This document shows, in pieces, positions 1,783-14,153 of a DNA stretch of 40,040 nucleotides. Under the pieces are notes generated by a model. The model was given only the letters and a program-made list of their open reading frames with translations. It did no database searches and was not told where the DNA came from. The stretch lies in NCBI GenBank assembly GCA_022801735.1, contig JAAWSW010000003.1, positions 1-40,040 of the forward strand, given 5' to 3'. Position numbers and translations under genes: made by a program. Positions within the stretch are counted from its first letter, which is position 1. Every line of letters begins with the position of its first letter. The stretch comes from Bacilli bacterium. GTDB lineage: Bacteria > Bacillota_I > Bacilli_A > RF39 > UBA660.

Positions 1783-2277
1783 TTAATTAGCCTTATGAAT
1801 TTTAAATTTATAACTTATCTTATCAATAATTATATATGCAATTGACACAAAAAATATATTCATAATCAAAGACGAATAAATACTTCTAAATAAATTAAAT
1901 AAATCAAAAGATGCATTAGCAGTTATTAAAATAAGTCCATACGTTAATGATCTATATACAACAATTAAAATAATTCCCATAATAACTACATTAATAAAAT
2001 TATTCGCAAGTAATAAATTCATTCTTGTAATTATAAAACCTAAAAGTAAAAATAAAAATCCATGAATAACAATTGTATTAGTATATATTAAATCATAAAA
2101 TATACCTGTAATAAAACATGATAAATAAAACTTATTTCTTTTATTATTAAAATATGGATAAACAATAATCAGTGACATAACAGTAAACAAAGGCAAAAAC
2201 AAACCATTAATAGAAACTAAATTTGATATTATACTATCTAAGATAAAAGATATAATCAAAACTAAAATAACCATCAT
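1783..2277 (-). CDS. mreD: Rod shape-determining protein MreD
   Basis: 164-aa polytopic membrane protein with GIFYDLIYT motif, overlapping the mreC stop. Confidence 0.85.
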   Translation of the reverse strand: MMVILVLIISFILDSIISNLVSINGLFLPLFTVMSLIIVYPYFNNKRNKFYLSCFITGIFYDLIYTNTIVIHGFLFLLLGFIITRMNLLLANNFINVVIMGIILIVVYRSLTYGLILITANASFDLFNLFRSIYSSLIMNIFFVSIAYIIIDKISYKFKIHKAN

Positions 2278-3122
2278 TTGCTTTTCCTCTTTAAAATAGT
2301 CACATAATCAACCTTATCAAAATCAACTGAACTTTTAACTAAAGCAACTTTAGATAAATCAAAATTATCAGTCGTCACCTTTGTTACATGACCTATTAAT
2401 AAACCGCTAGGGAAAGTGCCACCCATTCCTGTGGTAACAACATCAGAACCTTTTGGAATATCAATATTTTCACTTATACCTTCAACCGTATATGTATTAG
2501 ATTTTGAACTATATTTTGAAATAAGGCCATATACATAAGTATCATTCGCTTTAATTTTAACACTTATTTTATCACTCATATTATCATTAGAAAGTAATTT
2601 AACTGTACTATAATAATTACTCACACTAGATACTTTTCCTACAAGACCATAACTATTTACAACTGCCATATCCTTTTCAATACCATTTTTCTTCCCCTTA
2701 TCAATCGTTACCTCATCATACCAATAGTCAATATTACGATTAACAATCGTTGCATGTTTATAAAATTGATCACTAAGAATAGTTTCTAATTCTAAATTTT
2801 TCTTAAGTTCATCTACTTCATTTCTTAAATTATCATTTTCAGCAGTAGTTTTATCCATACTTTTTTCTTTTTCTTTTAAATCCTTATACTTCTCATAAAT
2901 ATCATTTTTTTCTCTGCCCTCACGAATTATATCCTTAACAAAATTAACTGGTGTACTAACAACATTAATAATAAAAGTACCACTATCTTTAATCATTTTT
3001 TCAGGGAAACTTAAATTCCTATCACGTTTTAAAGCAACAGAAAGAACCACTAATACAATAGCAAGAACAATAACTGCAATAATAATCAAATATCTTTTAT
3101 CAAATTCTTTCTTTCTGTACAT
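2274..3122 (-). CDS. mreC: Rod shape-determining protein MreC
   Basis: N-terminal TM, coiled coil, IDKGKKNGIEKDMAVV..GLVGKV and VVTTGMGGTFPSGLLIG. Start placed at ATG 3122 behind a GGTGA RBS (ORF track starts at 3134). Confidence 0.95.
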   Translation of the reverse strand: MYRKKEFDKRYLIIIAVIVLAIVLVVLSVALKRDRNLSFPEKMIKDSGTFIINVVSTPVNFVKDIIREGREKNDIYEKYKDLKEKEKSMDKTTAENDNLRNEVDELKKNLELETILSDQFYKHATIVNRNIDYWYDEVTIDKGKKNGIEKDMAVVNSYGLVGKVSSVSNYYSTVKLLSNDNMSDKISVKIKANDTYVYGLISKYSSKSNTYTVEGISENIDIPKGSDVVTTGMGGTFPSGLLIGHVTKVTTDNFDLSKVALVKSSVDFDKVDYVTILKRKSK

Positions 3123-3168
3123 AGTATCACCCATCTAAAATTATAATACATTTTTTAAATAAAACCAA

Positions 3169-3849
3169 CTAAATTTTTCCATTTTCTAAAAAACTATAAT
3201 ACTTATTTTTACTAACAATTACATGATCAACTAACTTTATTCCCATTAAATAACCAATTTCATTTAATCTATCAGTAACAATAACATCCTCTTTACTGGG
3301 CCTAACATCACCAGTTGGATGATTATGTACACAAATAATTGCTGTAGCATTAACCAAATAAGCCTCTTTAAAAACATCACGAGGATGAACCATACTTTCA
3401 TTAACAGTCCCCATAAAAAGTAGTTTTTCACTTAAAACTTTTTTATTAGAATCTAAATACAAACAATAAAAATACTCCTGATATTCATTAACGATATTTT
3501 TGTAATAATCATAAACAACCTCTGGTGTTGTAATTTTAACATCAACAATTTTATCCTGCTTAATATTCATTCTTCTATTAAGTTCCTGAATAGCAAGTAT
3601 CAAACACGCTTTAGCAGTTCCTATCCCCTTTATTTGTGTAAGTGCATGAAATCCAATATTTTTTAAATTTTGTATAGTTCCTATTTTTTTCAAAAGTTCC
3701 ATTGCAAGCACTTTAGCCGAAACATCTTTAGTACCAGTTTTTAAAACAATAGATAACAATTCCTCATCACTTAAACTTTGGACCCCTTTATTAATAAGCC
3801 TTTCCCTAGGCCTATCATTAATAGGCAAATCTTTAATTTTAATACTCAT
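3169..3849 (-). CDS. radC: RadC family JAB-domain protein
   Basis: RPRERL...LSDEELL..L.TG, HhH GIG.AKA, VHPRDVF, HNHPTGD.RPS.ED, DHVIV. Confidence 0.96.
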   Translation of the reverse strand: MSIKIKDLPINDRPRERLINKGVQSLSDEELLSIVLKTGTKDVSAKVLAMELLKKIGTIQNLKNIGFHALTQIKGIGTAKACLILAIQELNRRMNIKQDKIVDVKITTPEVVYDYYKNIVNEYQEYFYCLYLDSNKKVLSEKLLFMGTVNESMVHPRDVFKEAYLVNATAIICVHNHPTGDVRPSKEDVIVTDRLNEIGYLMGIKLVDHVIVSKNKYYSFLENGKI

Positions 3850-4297
3850 TATTTACCAACTCCTCATACTTAGATAAAACCTGATTACAAATAACTTCAA
3901 TAGTCCCATCTTCACTTGTTTGCGCTAAAAGTTCATCATACTGACCAAGTATAGTTAAAAAACTAACATTATCAGTAATTTTTTCTTTTATATATGTATC
4001 ATAACCTTTGTTTTCATAAAATTTTTTTATTTTTTCAGCATTCTTTTTACTCTTACTAATTCCTATATATGTATAATACATGTTATCTTCAACATTATAA
4101 ATATAGTGCTGAAAATCCTTCATATTATTAGTCATATTTTCTTTGTTGGAATATACACCCTTTTGAACATAATAAATCGTTTCTGCATTTTTAGAAACTG
4201 TAATACTATCCGCCTTATCATAACCACTTATTAAAAAATAAGCCATCATTACTCCTAAAAGTAAAGAAAAAGTTACTGGGAAAAGATATTTTTTCAT
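3839..4297 (-). CDS. Membrane-anchored SPOR-like domain protein
   Basis: N-terminal TM, then YYVQKGVYSNKEN...KKNAEKIKKFYENKGYDTYIKE resembling SPOR repeats. Position upstream of radC echoes spoIIB in Bacillus. Start at ATG 4297 behind AAGGTGA. Confidence 0.5.
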   Translation of the reverse strand: MKKYLFPVTFSLLLGVMMAYFLISGYDKADSITVSKNAETIYYVQKGVYSNKENMTNNMKDFQHYIYNVEDNMYYTYIGISKSKKNAEKIKKFYENKGYDTYIKEKITDNVSFLTILGQYDELLAQTSEDGTIEVICNQVLSKYEELVNNEY

Positions 4298-4380
4298 ACT
4301 ATCACCTTTTACCATTTTATAATAAAATAGTTTCTAAAAATGTCGAAAAATAATAAAATATCTATATATTTATCACATTT

Positions 4381-5208
4381 CTACTTAATAAACATATTTA
4401 TCTTCTTTTCCTTTTCTATCTGTTTTAAACTTTTATCTGGTGTAAGTAAATCTTCTGGCATTGTTCCACCTTGCCCTTGAATAAACTTTCTAATATCCCT
4501 TCCCATATTATAATGAGTTTTATTTGCTTTATCTTCTCCATTAACATTGTCATTCTTTAACTTTTGCTGCGTCTGTGAAATTCTAAATAAGTTGGCAATT
4601 AATTCATCACTACCCATGTTATCCAAAATATCTTCTCTATATCTGAGTCCCTTTCTTTTTGCTATATCATTTGCACTCTCCCCATTGTATAATCCTTTAT
4701 ATCCTGCATTATGAAATTTATCAAAATTTTTAACTCCAGCATTTTTGGCAGTTTGATTTAATAAATAATTTCCTTTCTTAGTTAAACTTCTTTGGTATAG
4801 TCTTTTTTCATCCTCAGATAGTGAACTATATTCAATTTCACTAAGTTCTTGTTTTCTAGTTTGCACCGCAAAGTAAGTTTGTCCCAAAGCAATTACTTCT
4901 TTTTTTGAATCACCATTTTGAACAATTAAATAACAAGCATATCTAGATAATTTATAATCTTGCTGTACTCTTTGTGCACCTTTAGCAATTTCTATCATTT
5001 TGTTGAGTTCAACAAAATGATCAGAAGTATTATATTTACTAGAATTACAGGCAACCATTGCTTTTTCTAAAACCTTACGAAAATTTCTCCATTCTTTATA
5101 TTCTAATACTTTTTGAAGTTCTCTTGCTTCCCAATATTCATTTCCAAATTCATCAGTATGTCTAATTTTTTCAAATACACTTTCATTATATTTTTCAATT
5201 TCATTCAT
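4381..5208 (-). CDS. dinD: DNA damage-inducible protein D (Bro-N-like N-terminus plus DinD C-terminal region)
   Basis: EYWEAREL...LSRYACYLIVQNGD.KKEVIALGQTYFAVQTRKQE, GYKGLY, ILDNMGSDEL.ANLFR, GGTMPEDL. Likely start ATG 5208 with a GGAGG RBS. Confidence 0.92.
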   Translation of the reverse strand: MNEIEKYNESVFEKIRHTDEFGNEYWEARELQKVLEYKEWRNFRKVLEKAMVACNSSKYNTSDHFVELNKMIEIAKGAQRVQQDYKLSRYACYLIVQNGDSKKEVIALGQTYFAVQTRKQELSEIEYSSLSEDEKRLYQRSLTKKGNYLLNQTAKNAGVKNFDKFHNAGYKGLYNGESANDIAKRKGLRYREDILDNMGSDELIANLFRISQTQQKLKNDNVNGEDKANKTHYNMGRDIRKFIQGQGGTMPEDLLTPDKSLKQIEKEKKINMFIK

Positions 5209-5241
5209 AGTATTTCCTCCTTTTTGAAACAAATTTCTTAG

Positions 5242-5282
5242 CCCCTTATATGTAATATACTGCATCCATCTATCAAATTCCT
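5242..5282 (-). repeat. Conserved ~42-bp upstream element, copy 1 (before dinD)
   Basis: 33 of 42 aligned positions are identical to 14006-14047 (manual alignment). Confidence 0.85.
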
Positions 5283-5323
5283 GCATCAAACATAAAAAAA
5301 ATGCACAAAAGTACAATTTTAAC

Positions 5324-5346
5324 AAAAAAAGATAGATTTCTCTATC
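5324..5346 (-). terminator. Intrinsic terminator of ftsZ
   Basis: GATAGA/TCTATC stem plus U7 on the minus strand directly after the stop. Confidence 0.7.
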
Positions 5347-5347
5347 C

Positions 5348-6406
5348 TTAAATTCCTCTTCTTCTTAAGAATGCTGGAATAACATCATCACCATCTTCTT
5401 CAACTGCAATAGGATCAATTAAAGTGTCTTCTGCTGCATGAGCCGCATTTTCTACTTGTTTATTGTTAAATCCTGTAGCAATTACAGTAACGATAATTTC
5501 ATCAGTAAAATTCTCATTAATAACTGCACCAAATATAGTATTAATATCAGTATTTGCAGATTTTCTAATAGCCTCTACTGCTTCTTCAACTTCAAATAAA
5601 GTTAAATTTGGTCCACCAGTTACGTTAATAATAGCATCAGTAGCACCATCTATACTAGTTTCTAATAATGGACTAAATACCGCTTGATTAGCCGCTTCTA
5701 CTGCTCTATCTTCTCCAACACCAGCACCAATACCAATTAAAGCATCACCACGTTTTTCCATAACTGCTTTAACATCGGCAAAGTCTAAGTTGATAAGTCC
5801 AGCCACTGCAATTAAGTCAGAAATTGATTGAACACCACGTCTTAACACATTATCAACTTCTTTAAACGAATCTAAAAGTGGAGTTGATTTATCAATAATC
5901 TCTCTTAAACGATCATTAGGTACAACAATTAAAGTATCAACATGTTCTCTTAATTCTTCAATACCTGCTAATGCTTGCTCCATACGTTTTTTACCTTCAA
6001 AAGAGAATGGTTTTGTAACAATTCCCACTGTAAGAGCACCTAAACTTTGGGCAATATCAGCAATTACAGGAGCAGCACCAGTACCAGTACCACCACCCAT
6101 TCCACATGTGATAAATACCATATCAGAACCTTTTAAAGCCTCTTCAATTTCATTTTTTGATTCTAATGCAGCCTCTTTACCAACTTGAGGGTTAGCACCT
6201 GCACCTAAACCGTTAGTAAGTTCCTCACCAATTTGTATTTTAGTTTCTGCTAAAGATGCATTCAAAACCTGTGAGTCTGTATTTGCAACTATAAAATCTA
6301 CTGCTTGTACACCAGTTTCTATCATTCGGTTAACAGCGTTTCCACCACCACCACCGATTCCTATTACTTTTATTTTTGCTAATTGATCCATTTCTAATCC
6401 AAACAT
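5348..6406 (-). CDS. ftsZ: Cell division protein FtsZ
   Basis: [35 protein letters not shown]-terminal DVIPAFLRR. Confidence 0.99.
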
Positions 6407-6421
6407 TTTTATTTCCTCCTA

Positions 6422-7663
6422 TTACTCACCAAAAAAGTATCCAAATACTTTACCAAGCATTGTATCGCTTGATGCATTTATAAAATGTTTATTAGTAGAT
6501 GATAATGTCTCCATATCACTTTTACTAAGCATTGTATAATCTTGTCCTTTTAACTTAAGTGTACTAATAAAATAAATTATATTACCAAGTGCAGTACTAT
6601 ATTTATTATTACGTACACCAATTAATTTAATCTTCCCTACACTAGCATTATTACCAAATACACTAGCAAGTGCATATTCAAACCCTAGAGCATTACTTAC
6701 TCCACCAGTTACTATTATATACTGAATAGGCCTATTTGTTAAGAGGTTTATTTCATTTTTTGCAAGAGATAAGATTTCTTCTACCCTTGACATAACCACT
6801 TCTGAAACCTCTAATTGATTAATTTTTATTTTCTTTCCATCTAAATTTACTGTTTCATATATATCACTTACATTAGCACTTCGTTTATGTGCAAAAGCAA
6901 ATTTTTCTTTTATTTTCTTTGCCTCTAATGCATCTACCTTATACATATAAACAATATCATTATCAATGTCTTTACCACCCATACCAACTATCTTTGTTTG
7001 AGCAGGTATTCCTTTATTATAAAGATTAACAGTAGTAACCTCACTACCTACATTAATAACTACACCAATACTGTCATTAATTTCTTTAGTTTGAAAAGAA
7101 CTAATATCCCCTATACTACCTAAAGAGATATCGGCAATTTCCACGCCTAAGCTTTCCAAAATACTAGCAACTGAATATACATTTTTCTTAGGCACACTTG
7201 TCATCATTGCACGTGCCATTAATTTAGATCCAGGAAAATCTTTAGGATCCTTCATAATAGTTTTATCATTGATTTTAAAATCAATTGGCACTGTACAAAC
7301 AAATTCTTTATCCTCTTTTAAATTATGTACAATTCCATCCTTAAAGGCACGATTCATATCTCTTGCAGAAATAGTTTCACCTTCAACATCAGATATACCT
7401 TTAATTATTTTATACTCAGCAAAATAACTAGGTACAGAAGCAATTACTTTATTAATTTTAATTCCAAGCATTTCCTCTACCTCATTAAATGCTTTAGCAA
7501 TAGATTCTCTTGCTAAATTAGGATCAACAATCAAACCTTTTTTTATACCTAAAGCTGGAGTAGCGGTTGCCGCTAGCAAATTTAAATGATTTTTATGCAA
7601 TTCACAAACAACTAGTTTAATAGTATCGCTGCCGATATCAATGCTAGTGTACACATGCTCCAT
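6422..7663 (-). CDS. ftsA: Cell division protein FtsA
   Basis: IDIGSDTIK, GIKKGLIVD, IIVTGGVS, YSTALG, C-terminal amphipathic helix; directly upstream of ftsZ. Confidence 0.92.
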   Translation of the reverse strand: MEHVYTSIDIGSDTIKLVVCELHKNHLNLLAATATPALGIKKGLIVDPNLARESIAKAFNEVEEMLGIKINKVIASVPSYFAEYKIIKGISDVEGETISARDMNRAFKDGIVHNLKEDKEFVCTVPIDFKINDKTIMKDPKDFPGSKLMARAMMTSVPKKNVYSVASILESLGVEIADISLGSIGDISSFQTKEINDSIGVVINVGSEVTTVNLYNKGIPAQTKIVGMGGKDIDNDIVYMYKVDALEAKKIKEKFAFAHKRSANVSDIYETVNLDGKKIKINQLEVSEVVMSRVEEILSLAKNEINLLTNRPIQYIIVTGGVSNALGFEYALASVFGNNASVGKIKLIGVRNNKYSTALGNIIYFISTLKLKGQDYTMLSKSDMETLSSTNKHFINASSDTMLGKVFGYFFGE

Positions 7664-7728
7664 ACCATCATCTCCTACAGTATTAATACAATTATACTAT
7701 ATTTTTTTTAAAATGCAAAGTAAATGCC

Positions 7729-7751
7729 AAAAAAAATTGGGATATCCCAAT
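7729..7751 (-). terminator. Probable terminator after divIB
   Basis: Palindrome ATTGGGATATCCCAAT (7736-7751) followed by a U-tract on the minus strand. A TTGCAT-16-TATAAT ftsA promoter follows at 7691-7718. Confidence 0.6.
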
Positions 7752-7755
7752 AATT

Positions 7756-8430
7756 TTATTCAAATACTTTAAAGTATTCTCCAGAATCTAAATACAAGAT
7801 TCCTTTTTTATTATTAAACTCTTTTATAATCTCTACATAATGATTAATTTTATTAAATTTATTTAAAGTTAAATAAACATAATTCCCATCACTCATAGTA
7901 ATCAAAAATCTTTCTTCGTCCACCTCGTTAGGGTCATATTTAATCTCCGAAATACGTTTAACAATTTCATAATCTATATATTCCATTTCCTTAATAAAAC
8001 TAGTATAAACTTTATTTGGTACATAATTGACTAAAGTTGGAACTGAAAAATTACTTTCAGTTTCTGTGCCATCTTTCAAAATAGTTTTTTTATTAGGTAC
8101 ATAATAAAATAAAGGTAAATTTTCTTCAATTTCAATAGTTATATTAGTAAGAAACTTTTTATGTACTTTCGCCTTCTTTATATATGGATCTTTTTCTAAT
8201 CTATTTTCAATTAAACCAGATAAATTCTGCATGCTTCTAGGATAATCAGAAAGTCCAGCAAGTTTAATCACCTGCCATTCACTATATAAAGTATTCCCCT
8301 TAACTACAATAGATTTAATTTTTAAATCATAAATACATATTAAAATGAGCGCTAAAGCAACAATCCCAAGGAATAATAAAAATATATTTTTTCCTTTTAT
8401 TTTTCTTTTCTTTACCTTTTTCTTAGCCAT
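7756..8430 (-). CDS. divIB: Cell division protein DivIB/FtsQ
   Basis: Basic N-tail, TM, POTRA (IKSIVVKGN...PYIKKAKV..ITIEIEE); lies between murB and ftsA. Confidence 0.85.
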   Translation of the reverse strand: MAKKKVKKRKIKGKNIFLLFLGIVALALILICIYDLKIKSIVVKGNTLYSEWQVIKLAGLSDYPRSMQNLSGLIENRLEKDPYIKKAKVHKKFLTNITIEIEENLPLFYYVPNKKTILKDGTETESNFSVPTLVNYVPNKVYTSFIKEMEYIDYEIVKRISEIKYDPNEVDEERFLITMSDGNYVYLTLNKFNKINHYVEIIKEFNNKKGILYLDSGEYFKVFE

Positions 8431-8444
8431 AAATATTTCACCTT

Positions 8445-9314
8445 TTATTCAATAATTTCTTGTTCAACTAGTAGTTCTATATTATATTTTTCTAATACTT
8501 CATCTTTAATATTATTAATTAAACTAATAACCTCTTTTCCACTTGCGCCACCAACATTAATGATAAAATTAGCATGCTTATCACTCACCATAGCATCACC
8601 AATCTTCGTACCTTTAAATCCCAAACTTTCAATTAAAGCACCAGCAAATTCGCCTTCAGGATTTCTAAAAACCGAACCTGCTGAAGGATATTCAAGTGGT
8701 TGTGATATTAGTCTTTTTTGTTTTCGAAGATTCATTAAATTAAATATTTTTTCTTTATCAGCAAAAGATAACTTCAAAACAGCACCAATACAAATATAAT
8801 CTTCATGTTTAAAAATACTATCACGATAACCAAAATGCAAATCATCTAATTTGATTTTTTTAACTTCATAATTATCGTCAATAATTATAACCTCACAAAC
8901 AACACAGTCCATACTAGAACCATATGCACCTGCATTCATGTAAATAGCCCCACCAATAGTTCCAGGAATACCAGAAGCAAACTCTAAGCCACTTAGTCCC
9001 AAACTAGCACATTTCATCGATAACTTCATTAAATTATATCCCGCACCTACAGAAACATATTCATCATGAATTTCCAAATTATTAAGTTCATCAAGTTTTA
9101 TAATTACCCCATCATAATCATTCACAAAAATCAAATTAGAACCATTACCAATAACCTTATACTTAATATTAGCATCATTCAAATATTTTAACAATTGCTG
9201 TAAATCAATCACACTTTTAGGATAAACTACTTTACTAAGTTTACCAGATAATTTATAAGTTGTGTAGTCTTTTATTAAAACATTTTCTAAAACCCTACCA
9301 AAATTATCTATCAT
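8445..9314 (-). CDS. murB: UDP-N-acetylmuramate dehydrogenase
   Basis: IGNGSNL, GLEFASGIPGTIGGAIYMNAGAYG, QPLEYPSAGSVFRNP, SDKHANFIIN. Confidence 0.98.
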   Translation of the reverse strand: MIDNFGRVLENVLIKDYTTYKLSGKLSKVVYPKSVIDLQQLLKYLNDANIKYKVIGNGSNLIFVNDYDGVIIKLDELNNLEIHDEYVSVGAGYNLMKLSMKCASLGLSGLEFASGIPGTIGGAIYMNAGAYGSSMDCVVCEVIIIDDNYEVKKIKLDDLHFGYRDSIFKHEDYICIGAVLKLSFADKEKIFNLMNLRKQKRLISQPLEYPSAGSVFRNPEGEFAGALIESLGFKGTKIGDAMVSDKHANFIINVGGASGKEVISLINNIKDEVLEKYNIELLVEQEIIE

Positions 9315-10387
9315 TTTACTAACTCTTTTAACTCATCATAAATTATAGACGCACTATCATCTACCTTTAACTTTTTCAAATTATTTTTAATCACTCTAAG
9401 TTTAACACTATCATCGATAACAGAATCAATAGTTTTAATCAAAGTGTCAGAAGATAAATTCTTCTCCTCAATCATTAATGCTGCATCATTATCAATCAAA
9501 TCTAAAGCATTAATATATTGATGATTATTTGCAACATAAGGTGATGGAATTAAAATTGAAGGAACCTCAAGTGAAATAATCTCACTCAAAGTAGAAGCCC
9601 CTGCCCTTGTAATCATTAAATCAGTTCTCTTAATAACCCTAGATAAGCCTTCGTAAAAAGGTATCACTTTTACATTATTTGGAAAATCCTTGTCTTTAAC
9701 CTGTTCATAAATAGATTTACCAGTCACATATAAAACCTCATAATTTTTATTTTTAAATTTATCCATACTATCAAGCATTACTTTATTAACTGATGCAGAG
9801 CCCAAAGAACCACATGCTACTAAAATAAGTTTTTTATTAGAAGAAAGTCCAAGTTCAGTTTTTGTTACAGCCTTAGCCTTAAGTGCCATTTCACCACATG
9901 GATTACCAGTAAGAGTGACTTTCTCCTTAGGCAAGTATTCCATTGAAGAAGCAAAAGAAACACCAATTTTATCAGTATATTTGGCTAAATATTTATTAGC
10001 CTTTCCAGGAATACTATTTTGTTCATGAATAAAAGTTTTATACCCTAACTTTTTCGCACTAACAATAACAGGCACTGTTACATACCCACCAACACCAATT
10101 ACTATATCTGGATTAAATTCCTTAATCATCTTTTTACAATCGCTAAAACCTTTAAAAACACATTTTAAAGTTTTAAAATTCTTAAATAAATTTTTCTTAT
10201 TAAAACCATACATCTCTATAGACTTAAAAGGAATACCTCTTTCAGGAACAATATCCTTTTCCATCCTATTATGAGTTCCAATATATAAAAACTCACTATT
10301 AGGTTCTTTTTCTTTTATTTTGTCAATAATTGCCAAAGCAGGATATATATGCCCGCCTGTTCCTCCAGCACTTACAACTACTCTCAT
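9311..10387 (-). CDS. murG: Undecaprenyldiphospho-muramoylpentapeptide beta-N-acetylglucosaminyltransferase
   Basis: GGTGGHIYPA, GVGGYV, HEQNSIPG, GSLGS, RAGASTLSE, HQYINA. Confidence 0.98.
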   Translation of the reverse strand: MRVVVSAGGTGGHIYPALAIIDKIKEKEPNSEFLYIGTHNRMEKDIVPERGIPFKSIEMYGFNKKNLFKNFKTLKCVFKGFSDCKKMIKEFNPDIVIGVGGYVTVPVIVSAKKLGYKTFIHEQNSIPGKANKYLAKYTDKIGVSFASSMEYLPKEKVTLTGNPCGEMALKAKAVTKTELGLSSNKKLILVACGSLGSASVNKVMLDSMDKFKNKNYEVLYVTGKSIYEQVKDKDFPNNVKVIPFYEGLSRVIKRTDLMITRAGASTLSEIISLEVPSILIPSPYVANNHQYINALDLIDNDAALMIEEKNLSSDTLIKTIDSVIDDSVKLRVIKNNLKKLKVDDSASIIYDELKELVK

Positions 10388-10465
10388 GTGACCACATCCT
10401 TAAAAATATTATATCATAATTATATTCAAAAAAAAGCGAAAATAGAAACGAAGTGTAAAGCAAAA

Positions 10466-12400
10466 CTATATATTATCATTAGTAATCATTGACACTAAAT
10501 TACCACCATTAAATCTCCTATGAGTAAATAACATAGTTAAATACACAAGCAATAATAAAATAATAAAACTAAAAATGAGTTCCTTAAACGGATATATAAT
10601 TTCTATAGTAAGAATTCTATTTAAACTCTCACACAAAATATAATTAATAAAAAACACAAAAGGTAAAGCTAAAATAAAACCTTTAATCACAATATATAAA
10701 CTTTCATAAAATAACATTTCCCTAAGTTTACACTGTCTTAAACCAACACTTTTTAAAGTCGCAAATTCCTGTATACGTAAATTAGTACTAGCCCAAATAG
10801 TATTAATAATAGAACTAACACCAATTAATAAAACTAAAACAGTAATACCATACAAAATAATTTTAATTGCTACAATAATATTATTAGTAAGTAACGTAGC
10901 CTTTCTAACATCAACATAAGAAATATCACTTATATTATTATCCTTAGAAAATTTATTTAAACTTTCTTCTAAATCCTTACTGCCATTCATAAATAAATTT
11001 AAAGAAGTATTTTTACAATAATTCTTTATATTTTTAGTTACCAAAACCACATTATCTCTTGTCAAATAATTAGAAATACCAAATGGTACTTTATCCCTAG
11101 TAATAAATCCCTCTTCCCTATCATTAATAATTAACTTAATAGAATCCTTTAAATAAAGTTTATCAAGTTTTACTAACTTATCGCCTTCATTATAAACTTC
11201 TTTAACTCTATTAATAACATAATCATCATCACCACTAACAACATACAAATTATTATTTTTATATTTCCTATCTAAATAACTATCAGGTGCCACCGAAACA
11301 GTTTCTAGACAAGACTCAAATAAATTATATTTATCACTGTTAGCCTTGGCATATAATTTTAACTTTTTCTTCACCAAATCATCACTATTTTCCAAAATAA
11401 CTTCAGCATCATACTCAGGCAAATTATTAAAACTATTCATACTTTTAATTCCATAACTTAAATACATACTAAAAGTTGTATAAATAATTATACTAATAAA
11501 AATACATAAAATAATAGGTCTATACTTTTTCCTACACCTTTTATAATTATAAAAAGCAAGCCTTTTAGTAATACTAATTTTTTTAAATAACTTAGGCTCC
11601 TTTTTAAACTTATAATCATTATTACTTCTAATACTATCAATAATTGGTATTTTACTTGCCAATATAGCAGGTAAAAAAGCCGATAATAACACCACCACTA
11701 TTACAAAAATAAAAGGAACTAAAACAAACAACGGATAAATAGAAAGTTTCAAATCAGATGTAAATAACAAAGAAAGCAAATCATTAATAACCCTAAGTAC
11801 AATAAACATCAAATTTACACTAATAACAAATCCCAGTAAAAGACCAATTAATAAAATAATAACGCTTTCAAAAATAACCATATTTCTTATTTTCCTCTTA
11901 GTCATCCCTAACGCTTTCAATAAACTAAATTGCCGTCTTCTTTCCATCACCGAAATAGAAAATGAATTATAAATAATAATCATTACACCAACACTTAAAA
12001 TAGTTAAAATAATAAAAATCAAACTAATAAACGTATCCAAAACATTTTCATTTTTACTAACACCATATAAAGATAACAACGGCTCATTATACACAATCTC
12101 CTTACAATTACCATTACATATTTCGTCTGTATAATCATAAGTTTTTCTTATATCATCATAAGTAATATAAAATTTACCCGAAGAAGATACAACTTTCTTA
12201 ACATGACTCTTTGGAATATTATCAGATTTTAAACTAACATGATAACTCCCATTATTTTTTATTACATCACTAATCATATAATCCCTAATACTAGAAAAAA
12301 ATAACCCAATACACATAAATAAAATAGATGCCAAAGTAACACTACAAATAGTAATAAAAGTTCTTTTTTTATTTCTAATTAAAAATCTAATTGTCAGCAC
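10466..12400 (-). CDS. FtsX-family ABC transporter permease
   Basis: Two FtsX repeats (IYNSFSISVMERRRQFSLLKALG; RIQEFATLKSVG) and multiple TMs. Confidence 0.9.
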   Translation of the reverse strand: MLTIRFLIRNKKRTFITICSVTLASILFMCIGLFFSSIRDYMISDVIKNNGSYHVSLKSDNIPKSHVKKVVSSSGKFYITYDDIRKTYDYTDEICNGNCKEIVYNEPLLSLYGVSKNENVLDTFISLIFIILTILSVGVMIIIYNSFSISVMERRRQFSLLKALGMTKRKIRNMVIFESVIILLIGLLLGFVISVNLMFIVLRVINDLLSLLFTSDLKLSIYPLFVLVPFIFVIVVVLLSAFLPAILASKIPIIDSIRSNNDYKFKKEPKLFKKISITKRLAFYNYKRCRKKYRPIILCIFISIIIYTTFSMYLSYGIKSMNSFNNLPEYDAEVILENSDDLVKKKLKLYAKANSDKYNLFESCLETVSVAPDSYLDRKYKNNNLYVVSGDDDYVINRVKEVYNEGDKLVKLDKLYLKDSIKLIINDREEGFITRDKVPFGISNYLTRDNVVLVTKNIKNYCKNTSLNLFMNGSKDLEESLNKFSKDNNISDISYVDVRKATLLTNNIIVAIKIILYGITVLVLLIGVSSIINTIWASTNLRIQEFATLKSVGLRQCKLREMLFYESLYIVIKGFILALPFVFFINYILCESLNRILTIEIIYPFKELIFSFIILLLLVYLTMLFTHRRFNGGNLVSMITNDNI

Positions 12401-13073
12401 TCATCTCATCTCCAACTATTTTACCATCATTAATTGTAATCACCCTGTCTGCCATATTAGCAATCTTCGAATCATGAGTAACCATAACAATAGTTTGACC
12501 ATACTGCCTATTATAATATTTCAGCATATTAATAATTTTTTTACTATTCTTACTATCCAAATTACCCGTAGGCTCATCTGCCAAAATAATTTTAGGGTGG
12601 TTTATAATTGCCCTCCCAATTGCTACCCTTTGTTGCTGACCCCCAGATAATTCATTAGGTAAATGATTTAATCGTTTTCCTAAATCAAGTGTTTTAATAA
12701 CCTCATCAAAATATTCTTCATCAACCATAATCCCCTCTAAGGACACTGGTAAAATAATATTTTCTCTTACATCAAGTACAGGAATCAAATTATAAAATTG
12801 ATAAATAAACCCAATGTTTGAACGTCTAAAACTAGTAAGTTTATCATCCTTCATTTCATAAATATTAACACCATCGATACATACACTACCACTAGTTGGA
12901 ATATCTACACCACCCAAAAGATGTAATAAAGTACTTTTACCACTACCACTTTTTCCGGTAATTGCAACAAACTCACCTTTATTGATTACTAAATCTACAT
13001 TCTTAACAGCATAAACCTTATTATCATTATTTCCGTAAATTTTTACTAAATTACTTGCTCTTAAAATTTCCAT
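12387..13073 (-). CDS. ABC transporter ATP-binding protein (LolD/MacB-type)
   Basis: [38 protein letters not shown]. Confidence 0.96.
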   Translation of the reverse strand: MEILRASNLVKIYGNNDNKVYAVKNVDLVINKGEFVAITGKSGSGKSTLLHLLGGVDIPTSGSVCIDGVNIYEMKDDKLTSFRRSNIGFIYQFYNLIPVLDVRENIILPVSLEGIMVDEEYFDEVIKTLDLGKRLNHLPNELSGGQQQRVAIGRAIINHPKIILADEPTGNLDSKNSKKIINMLKYYNRQYGQTIVMVTHDSKIANMADRVITINDGKIVGDEMSADN

Positions 13074-13087
13074 TTTATCATCCTCCT

Positions 13088-13978
13088 CTAATTGTTTATA
13101 AGCTCATAAGTAGTAACAAAAACACCATCAGGTTTAATATATTTAAATACATAACCATCATTTTCTAAACACATTATAATTCCAATAGTTTTATTATTAA
13201 ATGACTCTTTTATATGATTATCTACATATCCCATATACTTCATAACTTGTCCTATATGTTCTGCCTTAAATTCAATCGCTTTAATTTCAACTACTACAAA
13301 ACAGTTAAACTTATAATTAAAAAGCAAAAAATCTATTGAATGCTTATTTTCACCTATTTGTATTTTTACTTCATGCCCTACATAAGTAAAACCAATACCT
13401 AATTGTTTTAAAAAGTTATCCATATCTTCCATTATAGAATTATGTACAAATAACTCAGTTACCTTATCTGGTACTTTTTTGGTATTTATAATAACTGGGT
13501 CTTTTATTAAAGTATTTACTTTAGGCTCACTTAGTTCTTCCTTATAACCAATTCTTTCATATTCGTTTGCTTTTATTCTTTTTCTAAGTTCACGTACAGA
13601 AAGGCTTTGATTTTTAGTTATATAAATATAATAATTGGCTTCTTTTATATCATCTATATAAATAATTTCTAACACTTGACTCCAATTTAAATGATACAAA
13701 TGGTCCGACAATGTCGGACTTTTTAAATATAATTGCCTCATTCCCTTTAAACTAGTAATGTTATATCCCTTCCCAAGTTCTCTAGTTAACCTTTCAGAAT
13801 AATCTTTAATCAGTTTATTTCCATACTTTGCCCTTTCTTCTCCGCCTTGCGCGTCTACTAACAATCTACCGACTTCATAATAACTATTCAAATCACTTCT
13901 ATTTTTAGAATAGTCTTTAGCCTTTTTATATACTTCGTTTCTAATTAATGTATCTTTTATTTCATCATAATAGTTCAA
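13088..13978 (-). CDS. YhcG/DUF1016 family PD-(D/E)XK nuclease
   Basis: YYEVGRLL..AKYG...L..ELGKGY..L..MRQ.Y, IKDP, F.YVG, IDFLLFN...FVVVEIK...HIGQV..Y. TTG start with a GGAGG RBS. Confidence 0.92.
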   Translation of the reverse strand: MNYYDEIKDTLIRNEVYKKAKDYSKNRSDLNSYYEVGRLLVDAQGGEERAKYGNKLIKDYSERLTRELGKGYNITSLKGMRQLYLKSPTLSDHLYHLNWSQVLEIIYIDDIKEANYYIYITKNQSLSVRELRKRIKANEYERIGYKEELSEPKVNTLIKDPVIINTKKVPDKVTELFVHNSIMEDMDNFLKQLGIGFTYVGHEVKIQIGENKHSIDFLLFNYKFNCFVVVEIKAIEFKAEHIGQVMKYMGYVDNHIKESFNNKTIGIIMCLENDGYVFKYIKPDGVFVTTYELINN

Positions 13979-14005
13979 TTTATACCTCCTTTCTAATAAT
14001 TATTA

Positions 14006-14047
14006 CCCCTTCATATGTATGGTACTGCGTCGGCCTACCAAATTCCT
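14006..14047 (-). repeat. Conserved ~42-bp upstream element, copy 2 (before yhcG)
   Basis: ccccttcatatgtatggtactgcgtcggcctaccaaattcct aligns to 5242-5282. Confidence 0.85.
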
Positions 14048-14153
14048 TCTTTTTATCCTAAATTTGTAAAATTTCCTTTTTTGCACTTTTTTTATTACAA
14101 ATTTCCCTTTTTAAAACATAAAATATGCTACAATAATACAAGGAGGGATAATT

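Follow-up and report, generated by a model that had tools for sequence, protein, structure and literature searches.

Competence sigma factors of the SigH/ComX kind are found in non-sporulating Firmicutes, examples being S. aureus SigH and the streptococcal ComX with its cin-box TACGAATA. For promoters of the sigma-H class, the consensus is presented in PMC8510167 as RNAGGAWWW, a gap of 11 to 12 nucleotides (nt), and RNNGAATWW, and Table 3 of PMC7438776 sets out SigH promoters of C. difficile, with spoIIAA, ftsZ, minC, and frr named as SigH targets. In the defense field, BstA, a protein with a KilA-N-like N terminus, is described as having a DNA-based element, aba, within its own gene; aba, which is cognate for each protein variant, measures 63 bp, has direct repeats at its ends, and extends across the start of the gene (Owen et al. 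2021, PMC8585504). According to PMC9881135, members of the PADLOC families PDC-S13, PDC-S02, and PDC-S05 (ORF6N/RhuM) occur embedded in type I restriction-modification (R-M) loci. Here we analyze a 40,040-nt window of a Bacilli bacterium (contig JAAWSW010000003.1 of assembly GCA_022801735.1, positions 1 to 40,040), in which a dinD-like gene and a yhcG gene share a leader sequence and each carry a palindrome inside the coding sequence. On balance we consider it likely that the leader is the promoter of an alternative sigma factor and that the palindromes are a separate, family-wide feature acting as DNA.

The two leaders, at 5282..5242 and 14047..14006 on the minus strand, were identical at 33 of 43 aligned columns with one gap, which bears out the shared leader of about 42 bp, with 33 matching positions, reported in a preliminary description of this DNA. 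The first copy (5233..5292, minus strand) has a putative -35 block GCAGGAATT at 5284-5276, a putative -10 block GCAGTATATT at 5263-5254, and the downstream sequence ACATATAAGGGGC running to 5241; the second (13998..14057, minus strand) has GAAGGAATT at 14049-14041, GCAGTACCAT at 14028-14019, and GAAGGGG at 14012-14006. They scored 49.9 and 51.8 bits, respectively, in nhmmer. In both cases, 15 to 19 nt separate the end of the motif from an AGGAGG ribosome-binding site (RBS), followed by the ATG of dinD at 5208 and the TTG of yhcG at 13978. As had been noted, no other gene of the window is preceded by the motif, since nhmmer found these two copies only.

Beyond the window, the motif turned out to be a genome-wide family. 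The window's own genome (G000, in which the window's contig is C24) is assembled to 1.235 Mb in 101 contigs, with 28% G+C and 93.6% completeness, and the sequencing runs containing the window DNA are mouse-gut metagenomes. The pattern AGGAATTTGRTAGNNNGAYGCAGTA, allowing up to three mismatches, matched 19 times in G000 and never in the reversed control, and an nhmmer profile built from the copies found 30 at an E value of 0.02 or below. Looser scans added two copies (C55:1033 and C83:1235), bringing the family to about 32, and very weak matches lie directly before two further ORF6N genes (C56:16667 and C83:51908). With the generic expression RNAGGAWWW-N14-15-GTANNNTW, we obtained 25 intergenic-like matches in G000, compared with 2 in the reversed control, and all 25 were family members. 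The two-copy setting in which the leader had originally been framed is thereby superseded, and a one-off duplication at two loci, the alternative that had been offered, is rejected by this copy number. All G000 copies are intergenic, most of them located just after a hairpin and T-run, and they stand 12 to 94 nt before an RBS and start codon, with one copy at 232 nt. In all 12 aligned G000 copies, AGGAATTTG, GCAGTA, and TA were invariant, as was G-C/A-AGGAATT, while the spacer TAG and the GGG were nearly so. Reduced to two blocks, the G000 leader reads RNAGGAATT-N15-GTAnnnTA.

We compared this form with the sequences upstream of orthologous genes in 40 same-genus genomes (41 including G000), counting on 30 loci. 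The genus-level signal was AAAGGAAWWW, about 11 free bases, and (T)CGTAT(R)TT, with TATAGAGG frequently coming next; what the relatives kept was confined to the AGGAWW and (C)GTAT blocks and the distance between them, and an extended 25-nt pattern gave a single match, at three mismatches, in 30 related genomes. The two-block signal preceded comEA at 20 of 30 loci by a strict regular expression, most of the others being near-matches by eye. It was also found before a 403-amino-acid (aa) gene upstream of spoIIAA-sigF (13/30), 75 to 200 nt before the gene for a SPOR-domain protein (17/30), and 47 to 97 nt before an ATP-binding cassette (ABC) ATPase gene (17/30), as well as before the first gene of yhcG arrays and some dinD genes.

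The geometry of the leader is that of the sigma-H consensus as printed in PMC8510167 and of the C. difficile SigH promoters tabulated in PMC7438776. The -35 element R-N-AGGA-WWW is present exactly, 12 nt separate this block from the R-N-N-G of the -10 in the G000 copies and 11 to 12 nt in the relatives, AGGA and that G are 17 to 18 nt apart, and an R stands three bases before the G. As in the sigma-H class, the leader lies upstream of the spoIIAA-sigF region and of cell division and cell shape genes, and a SigH-like sigma factor is encoded at the rlmB locus. G000 encodes six sigma-70-family proteins, namely, SigA, a 707-aa RpoD-like protein, SigE (with SpoIIGA), a SigG-like protein, a SigF-like protein, and the SigH-like protein of 208 aa, whose gene (C18:31049-31672) adjoins rlmB and is single-copy in 37 of the 41 genus genomes. 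Geometry, copy number, and conservation across the genus all favor the first of the three options raised earlier, a dedicated promoter or regulon resembling sigma-H. On this sequence evidence, the leader is very probably the promoter of an alternative sigma factor, and it is reasonably likely that the SigH-like protein reads it; the promoter would be a new member, or a mild variant, of the sigma-H class. Such a sigma factor would recognize R-N-AGGAATT as the -35 and GTA-nnn-TA as the -10, with the G of the latter 18 nt after AGGA, and transcription is predicted to start about 7 nt after the TAnnAT hexamer, near GAAGGGG. Metatranscriptome contigs from four runs include pieces covering dinD and yhcG. 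In run X20, a 195-nt contig (depth, 23) stops at 14012, which is 7 nt past the TACCAT hexamer; since it comes from a single study and assembled contigs cannot show transcription starts, we did not count it as evidence.

Several observations weigh against this assignment. The GAAT core of the sigma-H -10 is replaced by GTA(T/C/G) in G000 and by (C)GTAT in the relatives. The best NCBIfam matches of the SigH-like protein are indeed SigH models, but at 113 to 117 bits they fall below the cutoffs of 208 to 212. A search of G000, which is 93.6% complete, did not find the Spo0A_C domain, and Spo0A is a target typical of sigma-H. Finally, conservation within the species extends to 13 spacer bases (TTGATAGGTGGAT) and to the downstream ACATATGAAGGGGC, which exceeds what a sigma factor needs and differs from known sigma-H promoters; a second DNA-binding factor or gene conversion among the copies are the obvious candidates for this extra conservation of the spacer and the +1 region. 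The G000 spacers are homogenized (TTGATAGGTGGATGCA) even before the core gene comEA, while the orthologous promoters of two sister species (G042 and G048) have in common another spacer, which is AT rich. Dispersed elements of 45 nt are here evolving in concert.

The same conservation bears on an ordinary sigma-A promoter (-35 TTGATA or TTGGTA, spacer of 16 to 17 nt, -10 TACATA or ACATAT) to which a dedicated repressor or activator also binds at an overlapping operator, an arrangement that would explain both the conserved AGGAA and GCAGTA blocks and the species-specific spacer. TTGATA or TTGGTA does occur in most G000 copies, with TA-rich hexamers 16 to 17 nt downstream, and a spacer conserved in G000 and absent in relatives calls for an extra binding factor. 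However, the TTG-like hexamer is not conserved in relatives (e.g., AAAGGAAAACAACAATAAAAATAGTATATA), whereas AGGA and GTAT are, and the candidate -10 lacks an invariant final T, whereas the TAnnAT following GCAG keeps T1, A2, and T6 in 12 of 12 copies. Moreover, true sigma-A promoters of G000 are canonical, with TTGCAG-17-TATAAT before frr and TTGACA plus a LexA box before a third dinD copy. We therefore regard an overlaid sigma-A promoter as improbable.

The preliminary description had also proposed a cis-regulatory RNA. This would be a riboswitch-like or protein-binding 5' untranslated region (UTR) common to both mRNAs. The high conservation over 45 nt and the position of GAAGGGG near the presumed 5' end of the transcript would suit such an element, but an Rfam scan of eight motif loci at an E value of 1 or below returned only tRNAs and no match to the leader, and RNAalifold predicted no pairs on 12 leader copies. 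In addition, the relatives keep only two short blocks at fixed spacing, with unconstrained sequence between them, and transcription is expected to start downstream of most of the motif. A regulatory RNA is thus extremely improbable.

We then assigned the genes behind the copies of this putative sigma-H-type promoter. The motif precedes YhcG genes or pseudogenes on contigs C24, C60, C15, C65, C45, and C69, with C92 as a probable further case whose leader is shared by contig-end copies on C90 and C50. It also precedes DinD genes on C24 and C56, an ORF6N gene on C18, and PD-(D/E)xK genes of the PDDEXK_2 family on C67, C66, C17, and C55; contig-end copies on C3, C21, C41, and C86 have the PDDEXK_2 type of leader. 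The enrichment before DinD, DUF1016, and ORF6N genes that had been predicted was thus found in G000. Further targets are genes for an MvaI/BcnI-like endonuclease, an LPD3 protein, an M23 peptidase, DUF6273, a thioester-domain protein with sortase, a C39-peptidase ABC exporter, and a 105-aa open reading frame (ORF), together with the core operon comEA-comEC and a gene for a 403-aa secreted protein followed by SpoIIAA-like, SigF-like, and pilin-like genes, sodA, and spoVA genes. Accessory, nuclease-like, or DNA-binding candidate defense genes account for more than half of the targets, but the motif is not specific to the mobilome, because core operons such as comEA-comEC are also among them. Occurrence before diverse core genes, as seen here, is what the preliminary description had said would mark an ordinary sigma promoter and refute its proposal. 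The sigma factor would accordingly drive resident operons (comEA-comEC, the ABC transporter, SPOR-radC-mreC, and the gene before spoIIAA-sigF), and more than half of the copies would drive the candidate defense genes, i.e., YhcG, DinD, ORF6N, the PD-(D/E)xK "Rpn-like" proteins, and the MvaI/BcnI-like endonuclease. A regulon composed mostly of candidate defense and nuclease genes is a further difference from described sigma-H regulons.

What this set has in common with the SigH/ComX regulons is the placement of comEA-comEC and radC behind the promoter and the membership of an M23 murein hydrolase and of a C39 ABC exporter; in addition, its CGTATA resembles CGAATA. Unlike in those regulons, the motif was absent from the surroundings of the three T2SSE ATPase genes of G000, that is, of type IV pilus genes, comEA-comEC being the sole motif-bearing competence genes, and a domain search of the 93.6%-complete genome did not find DprA; both results weigh against the sigma-H assignment as well. 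We therefore rejected a full competence regulon and do not use that name. Sporulation sigmas and spoVA are kept here: G000 encodes SigE with SpoIIGA, SigF-like and SigG-like sigmas, spoVAC/AD/AEB, and a CotZ-like protein. What emerges is a map of about 32 promoters and a genus-level consensus for an uncultured mouse-gut bacterium with a reduced genome, in which DNA uptake, cell envelope, and sporulation entry genes are joined with many candidate defense nucleases.

The two window loci illustrate how such genes come to lie behind the promoter. On the minus strand, on which all genes of both loci are encoded, ftsZ (5348-6406) is followed by a terminator-like hairpin, GATAGA-gaaa-TCTATC with a T7 run, at 5324..5346 (read from the sequence, right after the ftsZ stop and upstream of the promoter), and then by the motif, the RBS, and dinD (4381..5208, minus strand). 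The latter encodes 275 aa with a Bro-N domain (Pfam, E = 2.1e-11; PADLOC PDC-S13, 338 bits) and 52% identity to the annotated E. coli dinD product. Downstream lies a resident operon (2274..4315, minus strand) of the SPOR gene (3839-4315), radC (3169-3849), and mreC (2274-3134), assigned by Pfam SPOR, RadC, and MreC; its conserved 5' UTR box TTTTTCGACATTTTTA (4335..4350, minus strand) marks the right edge of the dinD insert. The second motif copy is followed by yhcG (13088..13978, minus strand), encoding 296 aa with DUF1016_N and a YhcG_C PD-(D/E)xK nuclease domain (Pfam, E = 3e-24 and 4e-32; PADLOC PDC-S02, 205 bits), which directly adjoins a resident ABC transporter operon (10466..13073, minus strand, from the ORF list) consisting of the ATPase (12387-13073) and permease (10466-12400) genes. 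The ATPase gene is kept in 37 of 41 genus genomes.

In many same-genus genomes the ftsZ-SPOR slot is empty: ftsZ is followed after 120 to 150 nt by the SPOR gene, with the promoter 75 to 81 nt upstream of the latter and a conserved UTR box (TTTCGACAAA-like) in between. The slot holds dinD in G000 and yhcG in G042 and G048, and in all three genomes the insert lies between promoter and UTR box, leaving the SPOR gene without a second promoter. The ABC slot holds yhcG in G000, G012, G038, and G050 and dinD in G048; a second promoter copy at -47 or -48 of the ATPase gene was present in G012, G034, and G050. In many relatives the promoter stands directly before the resident gene, with no insert. A different picture was obtained at frr, which has its own sigma-A promoter: 28 of 30 relatives had no insert there (four probes) and no motif within 400 nt, while in G000 (yhcG) and G014 (ORF6N) promoter and ORF were inserted together. 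At this slot the promoter arrived with the ORF and was not resident, which runs counter to a scheme of resident promoters only. Accessory ORFs thus borrow a resident promoter of this class or bring their own. In the window, dinD and yhcG are lodged as single ORFs between resident promoters and native 5' UTRs, and from this placement they are predicted to be cotranscribed with the native operons and expressed when the sigma factor is active.

Inserts that directly follow the conserved +1 region and stop immediately ahead of the resident 5' UTR, and different genes in the same slots of sister species, raise the question of an integron-like capture system, in which the motif or its GAAGGGGC part would be the attachment site and a recombinase encoded elsewhere would place promoter-less ORFs behind the promoter. 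Promoter copies on both sides of the yhcG insert in G012, G034, and G050, as a Campbell-type insertion would leave, and the homogenization of the copies within G000 would also fit. Integrons likewise have promoter-less single ORFs directly behind a resident promoter and cassettes that differ between related genomes, but here there is no IntI beside the slots, no attC-like 3' element, and no array in the slots, and the promoter serves a native operon. In agreement with the absence of an integrase noted earlier, no tyrosine recombinase (PF00589) matched on C24; the four G000 matches lie on other contigs, and two are Xer-sized. A Y1 HUH transposase (PF01797) was not found in the 93.6%-complete genome, so that the hallmark of REP/RAYT or IS200/IS605 elements is missing. 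We saw neither target duplications nor a shared 3' element at the slots, the distance from the stop codon to the next gene or UTR box being only 14 nt for yhcG and 65 nt for dinD. Furthermore, the promoter is conserved before core genes without an insert, the tandem yhcG arrays of relatives have spacers of 15 to 20 nt without the motif, and the two flanking promoters of G012 differ in their spacers and hence are not a recent duplication. On these grounds we rank site-specific capture low, at about the same slim chance as an overlaid sigma-A promoter or slightly less. The cassette-end option of the preliminary description is not supported in the form given, in view of the promoter before insert-free core genes and the lack of an attC-like end or nearby recombinase, although the inserts do behave as swappable single ORFs.

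As to the families themselves, dinD is also known in this genus under a different control. The window dinD promoter has no LexA box, whereas the third G000 dinD (C84:10740-11543) and eight genus homologs (loci L071, L073, L077, L082 to L085, and L095) have a LexA box of the Firmicute type (CGAAC-N4-GTT-like) overlapping a sigma-A promoter. Because of this paralog class, the dinD family appears split between SOS control and the sigma-H-type promoter. Of the 41 genus genomes, 31 contained yhcG, and one genome of roughly 1 Mb could have as many as 11 matches, often in tandem arrays and often as pseudogenes; arrays of three to four paralogs have 15- to 20-nt spacers, and many members have in-frame stops (e.g., G006:C2:10216-13812 and G009:C1:579431-582119). 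These proteins resemble the candidates in PADLOC in their strong hidden Markov model matches and in being single-gene accessory cassettes; they differ in lying outside R-M operons, behind promoters of the putative alternative sigma between housekeeping operons, and in the expansion of yhcG. Candidate antiphage genes can thus join the regulon of a transition-state or competence-type sigma factor instead of R-M operons or SOS control, and the exchange of single defense ORFs behind fixed promoters with no visible recombinase would be a simple means of defense turnover for small genomes.

As a sigma promoter, the leader would be of an ordinary kind, if an informative one; the palindromes, which are robust, DNA-level, and family-wide, are the unusual part. 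Both in-gene palindromes reported earlier are present. That of dinD (4994..5021) reads ATCATTTTGTTGA-AC-TCAACAAAATGAT, with arms of 13 nt around 2 nt, and encodes DHFVELNKM; that of yhcG (13703..13719) reads GTCCGACA-T-TGTCGGAC, with arms of 8 nt around a single T (center, CA-T-TG), and encodes S87 to D92. The latter is the only palindrome of the window with 8-nt arms and at least four G/C per arm, compared with 0.17 in 30 Markov shuffles. In an AlphaFold2 model of the window YhcG (mean predicted local distance difference test score, 87.6), the palindrome peptide forms the loop between helices 74-86 and 92-96.

Far from being peculiar to these two genes, as first framed, the palindromes are features of whole gene families. 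In 37 of 44 yhcG copies from G000 and the genus, the site formed a perfect palindrome whose arms were 6 nt or longer, with the center CA-n-TG and with arms that differ between paralogs, and it was palindromic in 66 of 81 homologs from other lineages (among them Bacteroidota, Ignavibacteria, Sulfurimonas, and a Pasteurellaceae genome), some of which, in Bacteroidota, have two to three tandem palindrome modules. Among 112 full-length yhcG genes, a GC-containing palindrome with arms of at least 7 nt was located within 60 nt of the site in 84 and elsewhere in the gene in only 2; this set contained 49 distinct inner arms, and the peptide follows the symmetry as x1-x2-T/A-L/V/M-x2'-x1'. At the dinD site, DHF-xxxx-KM, 25 of 30 genus homologs had a palindrome with arms of 6 nt or more, and 14 of 20 further homologs had one with arms of 7 nt or more; the latter count covers these 20 sequences only and includes plasmid copies from Bacteroidota and Zymomonas; in E. 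coli it is degenerate. Among phylum-wide loci, palindromes were present in 15 of 26 ORF6N and 26 of 29 RhuM genes. Conversely, G000 has 19 ORF-embedded palindromes with arms of at least 12 nt, four of which lie at ORF ends and are terminator-like, and 10 of the other 15 fall in ORF6N (4), DinD/Bro-N (3), YhcG (1), RhuM (1), and Fic (1) genes.

Arm pairs other than Watson-Crick were rare, 19 of 1,019 in yhcG (2 G:T) and 22 of 488 in dinD (5 G:T). Since mismatches are rare and show no G:U bias, the constraint is on DNA symmetry or a DNA hairpin and not on a sense-RNA helix, and a sense-RNA hairpin was ruled out by this spectrum. A -1 frameshift stimulator or a sense-strand terminator was rejected by eye, with no proper slippery heptamer and no sense T-run after the hairpin; seen from the antisense strand, an A-run before the hairpin would be a T-run. 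The idea that recombination or domain shuffling takes place at the site was rejected as well, the difference between N- and C-terminal identities having a standard deviation of 0.075, compared with 0.073 for a control split.

We next considered which residues vary together with the palindrome. In a set of 62 unique YhcG genes, normalized mutual information with the arm bases was highest, among residues not encoded by the palindrome codons, for 78, 128, 103, 75, 79, 104, and 74, and residues 74, 75, 78, and 79 form one face of the helix preceding the palindrome loop. Across different inner arms, particular outer-arm tetranucleotides go together with particular residue triplets, the predicted code being TTGC with x-T/S-S/T-R, GGTG with x-T-K-R, and TGGC with x-R-R-N. 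This covariation is suggestive of a direct readout of the arm bases by the helix face. Taken with the fixed position, it makes a cognate self-site our leading, if still tentative, hypothesis: the palindrome would be the binding site of the N-terminal DNA-binding domain of the protein encoded by the same gene, acting as a portable self-mark or operator carried along wherever the ORF moves. As in BstA-aba, a short DNA element lies inside a gene for a putative DNA-binding defense protein; here the arms are paralog-specific and, in YhcG, covary with a helix face. Compared with aba as described in PMC8585504, these are perfect palindromes of 17 to 28 bp, located 190 to 280 nt into the ORF and found in the Bro-N/DinD and DUF1016 families; the word "palindrom" does not occur in the text of that paper. 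A literature search of the main texts of papers found no description of in-gene palindromes in the YhcG, DinD, ORF6N, or RhuM families.

Some points stand against a cognate self-site. No G000 yhcG palindrome has a second copy elsewhere in G000, and we accordingly rejected a repeated genomic target. The normalized mutual information of the top residues, 0.59 to 0.88 compared with a median of 0.26, carries no correction for phylogeny, and the outer arm bases are at the same time codon bases of residues 86 to 88. Lastly, near-perfect symmetry is unusual for operators and could have its source in template-switch correction. The main rival is that the palindromes are functionless quasi-palindromes kept perfect by template-switch (hairpin-templated) replication correction in protein segments that tolerate change. 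The 98% Watson-Crick pairs without G:U bias, the loop encoded by the yhcG palindrome, the two to three tandem modules in Bacteroidota, the lack of a second genomic copy, and the lack of recombination mosaicism at the site are all compatible with it. Coding palindromes are, moreover, known from Nematomorpha mitochondria, where, according to PMC6649704, perfect inverted repeats likewise occur in coding sequence, although these are mitochondrial, reach 284 bp, and are not tied to DNA-binding families. Template switching leaves unexplained the fixed codon position across phyla in four families with N-terminal DNA-binding domains, the presence of 10 of the 15 strongest internal G000 palindromes in those families and Fic, and the covariation of arm bases with a helix face outside the palindrome, and we consider it rather unlikely.

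Of these data, the palindromes reach further than the promoters, being position-specific, covarying, and present in four or more widespread families. If they are cognate self-sites, they would provide a direct experimental handle on the DNA bound by these uncharacterized proteins, and self-recognition of the BstA-aba kind would be extended to several large families. A broader and more doubtful proposal is that YhcG/DUF1016, DinD/Bro-N, ORF6N, and RhuM genes carry their own cognate site in their codons as an aba-like self-mark or operator with a helix-to-base code (YhcG residues 75, 78, and 79 against the outer arms), which would make the ORF an autonomous, promoter-independent cassette. Parked behind sigma-H-type promoters, such ORFs might supply paralog-specific nucleases that are switched on together with comEA-comEC DNA uptake at the transition state.

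Some further palindromes were noted in G000. A 441-aa Fic-family gene (C23:9-1331) has an internal palindrome with 14-nt arms, and a RhuM-like 105-aa fragment with a 13-nt-arm palindrome lies directly before a 203-aa ORF (C97:5527-6465). A perfect 15+15 palindrome, TTTAAACCTATCGAATTCGATAGGTTTAAA, is located in a penicillin-binding protein transpeptidase gene (C26:40; aa 635 of 654), which is unrelated to the defense families.

With respect to the promoters, seven copies (C3:8242, C21:118, C41:3841, C50:2486, C86:11897, C90:10892, and C92:140) form a subfamily located within 60 to 160 nt of contig ends; these repeats probably break the assembly. In the subfamily another AGGGAATTTGGTAAAT box stands some 27 nt upstream, the leader contains a hairpin of the GAAGGGTAAGAAATACCCTT type, and the genes that follow are multicopy PDDEXK_2 (Rpn-like) or yhcG genes. 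In the window, a second, weaker AAAGGAAATTT box lies at 14058-14090 (minus strand), upstream of the yhcG promoter, as in this subfamily; it could be a tandem promoter or a UP-like element. Finally, the 707-aa sigma-70-family protein (G000:C60:10396-12519; L032:118-2241) has an RpoD-like C-terminal half and about 430 N-terminal aa without assignment. Its best partial NCBIfam matches include MzaA, the sigma factor associated with the MZA anti-phage system, at scores far below the cutoff, and its gene is located two genes upstream of a yhcG gene that follows the motif.

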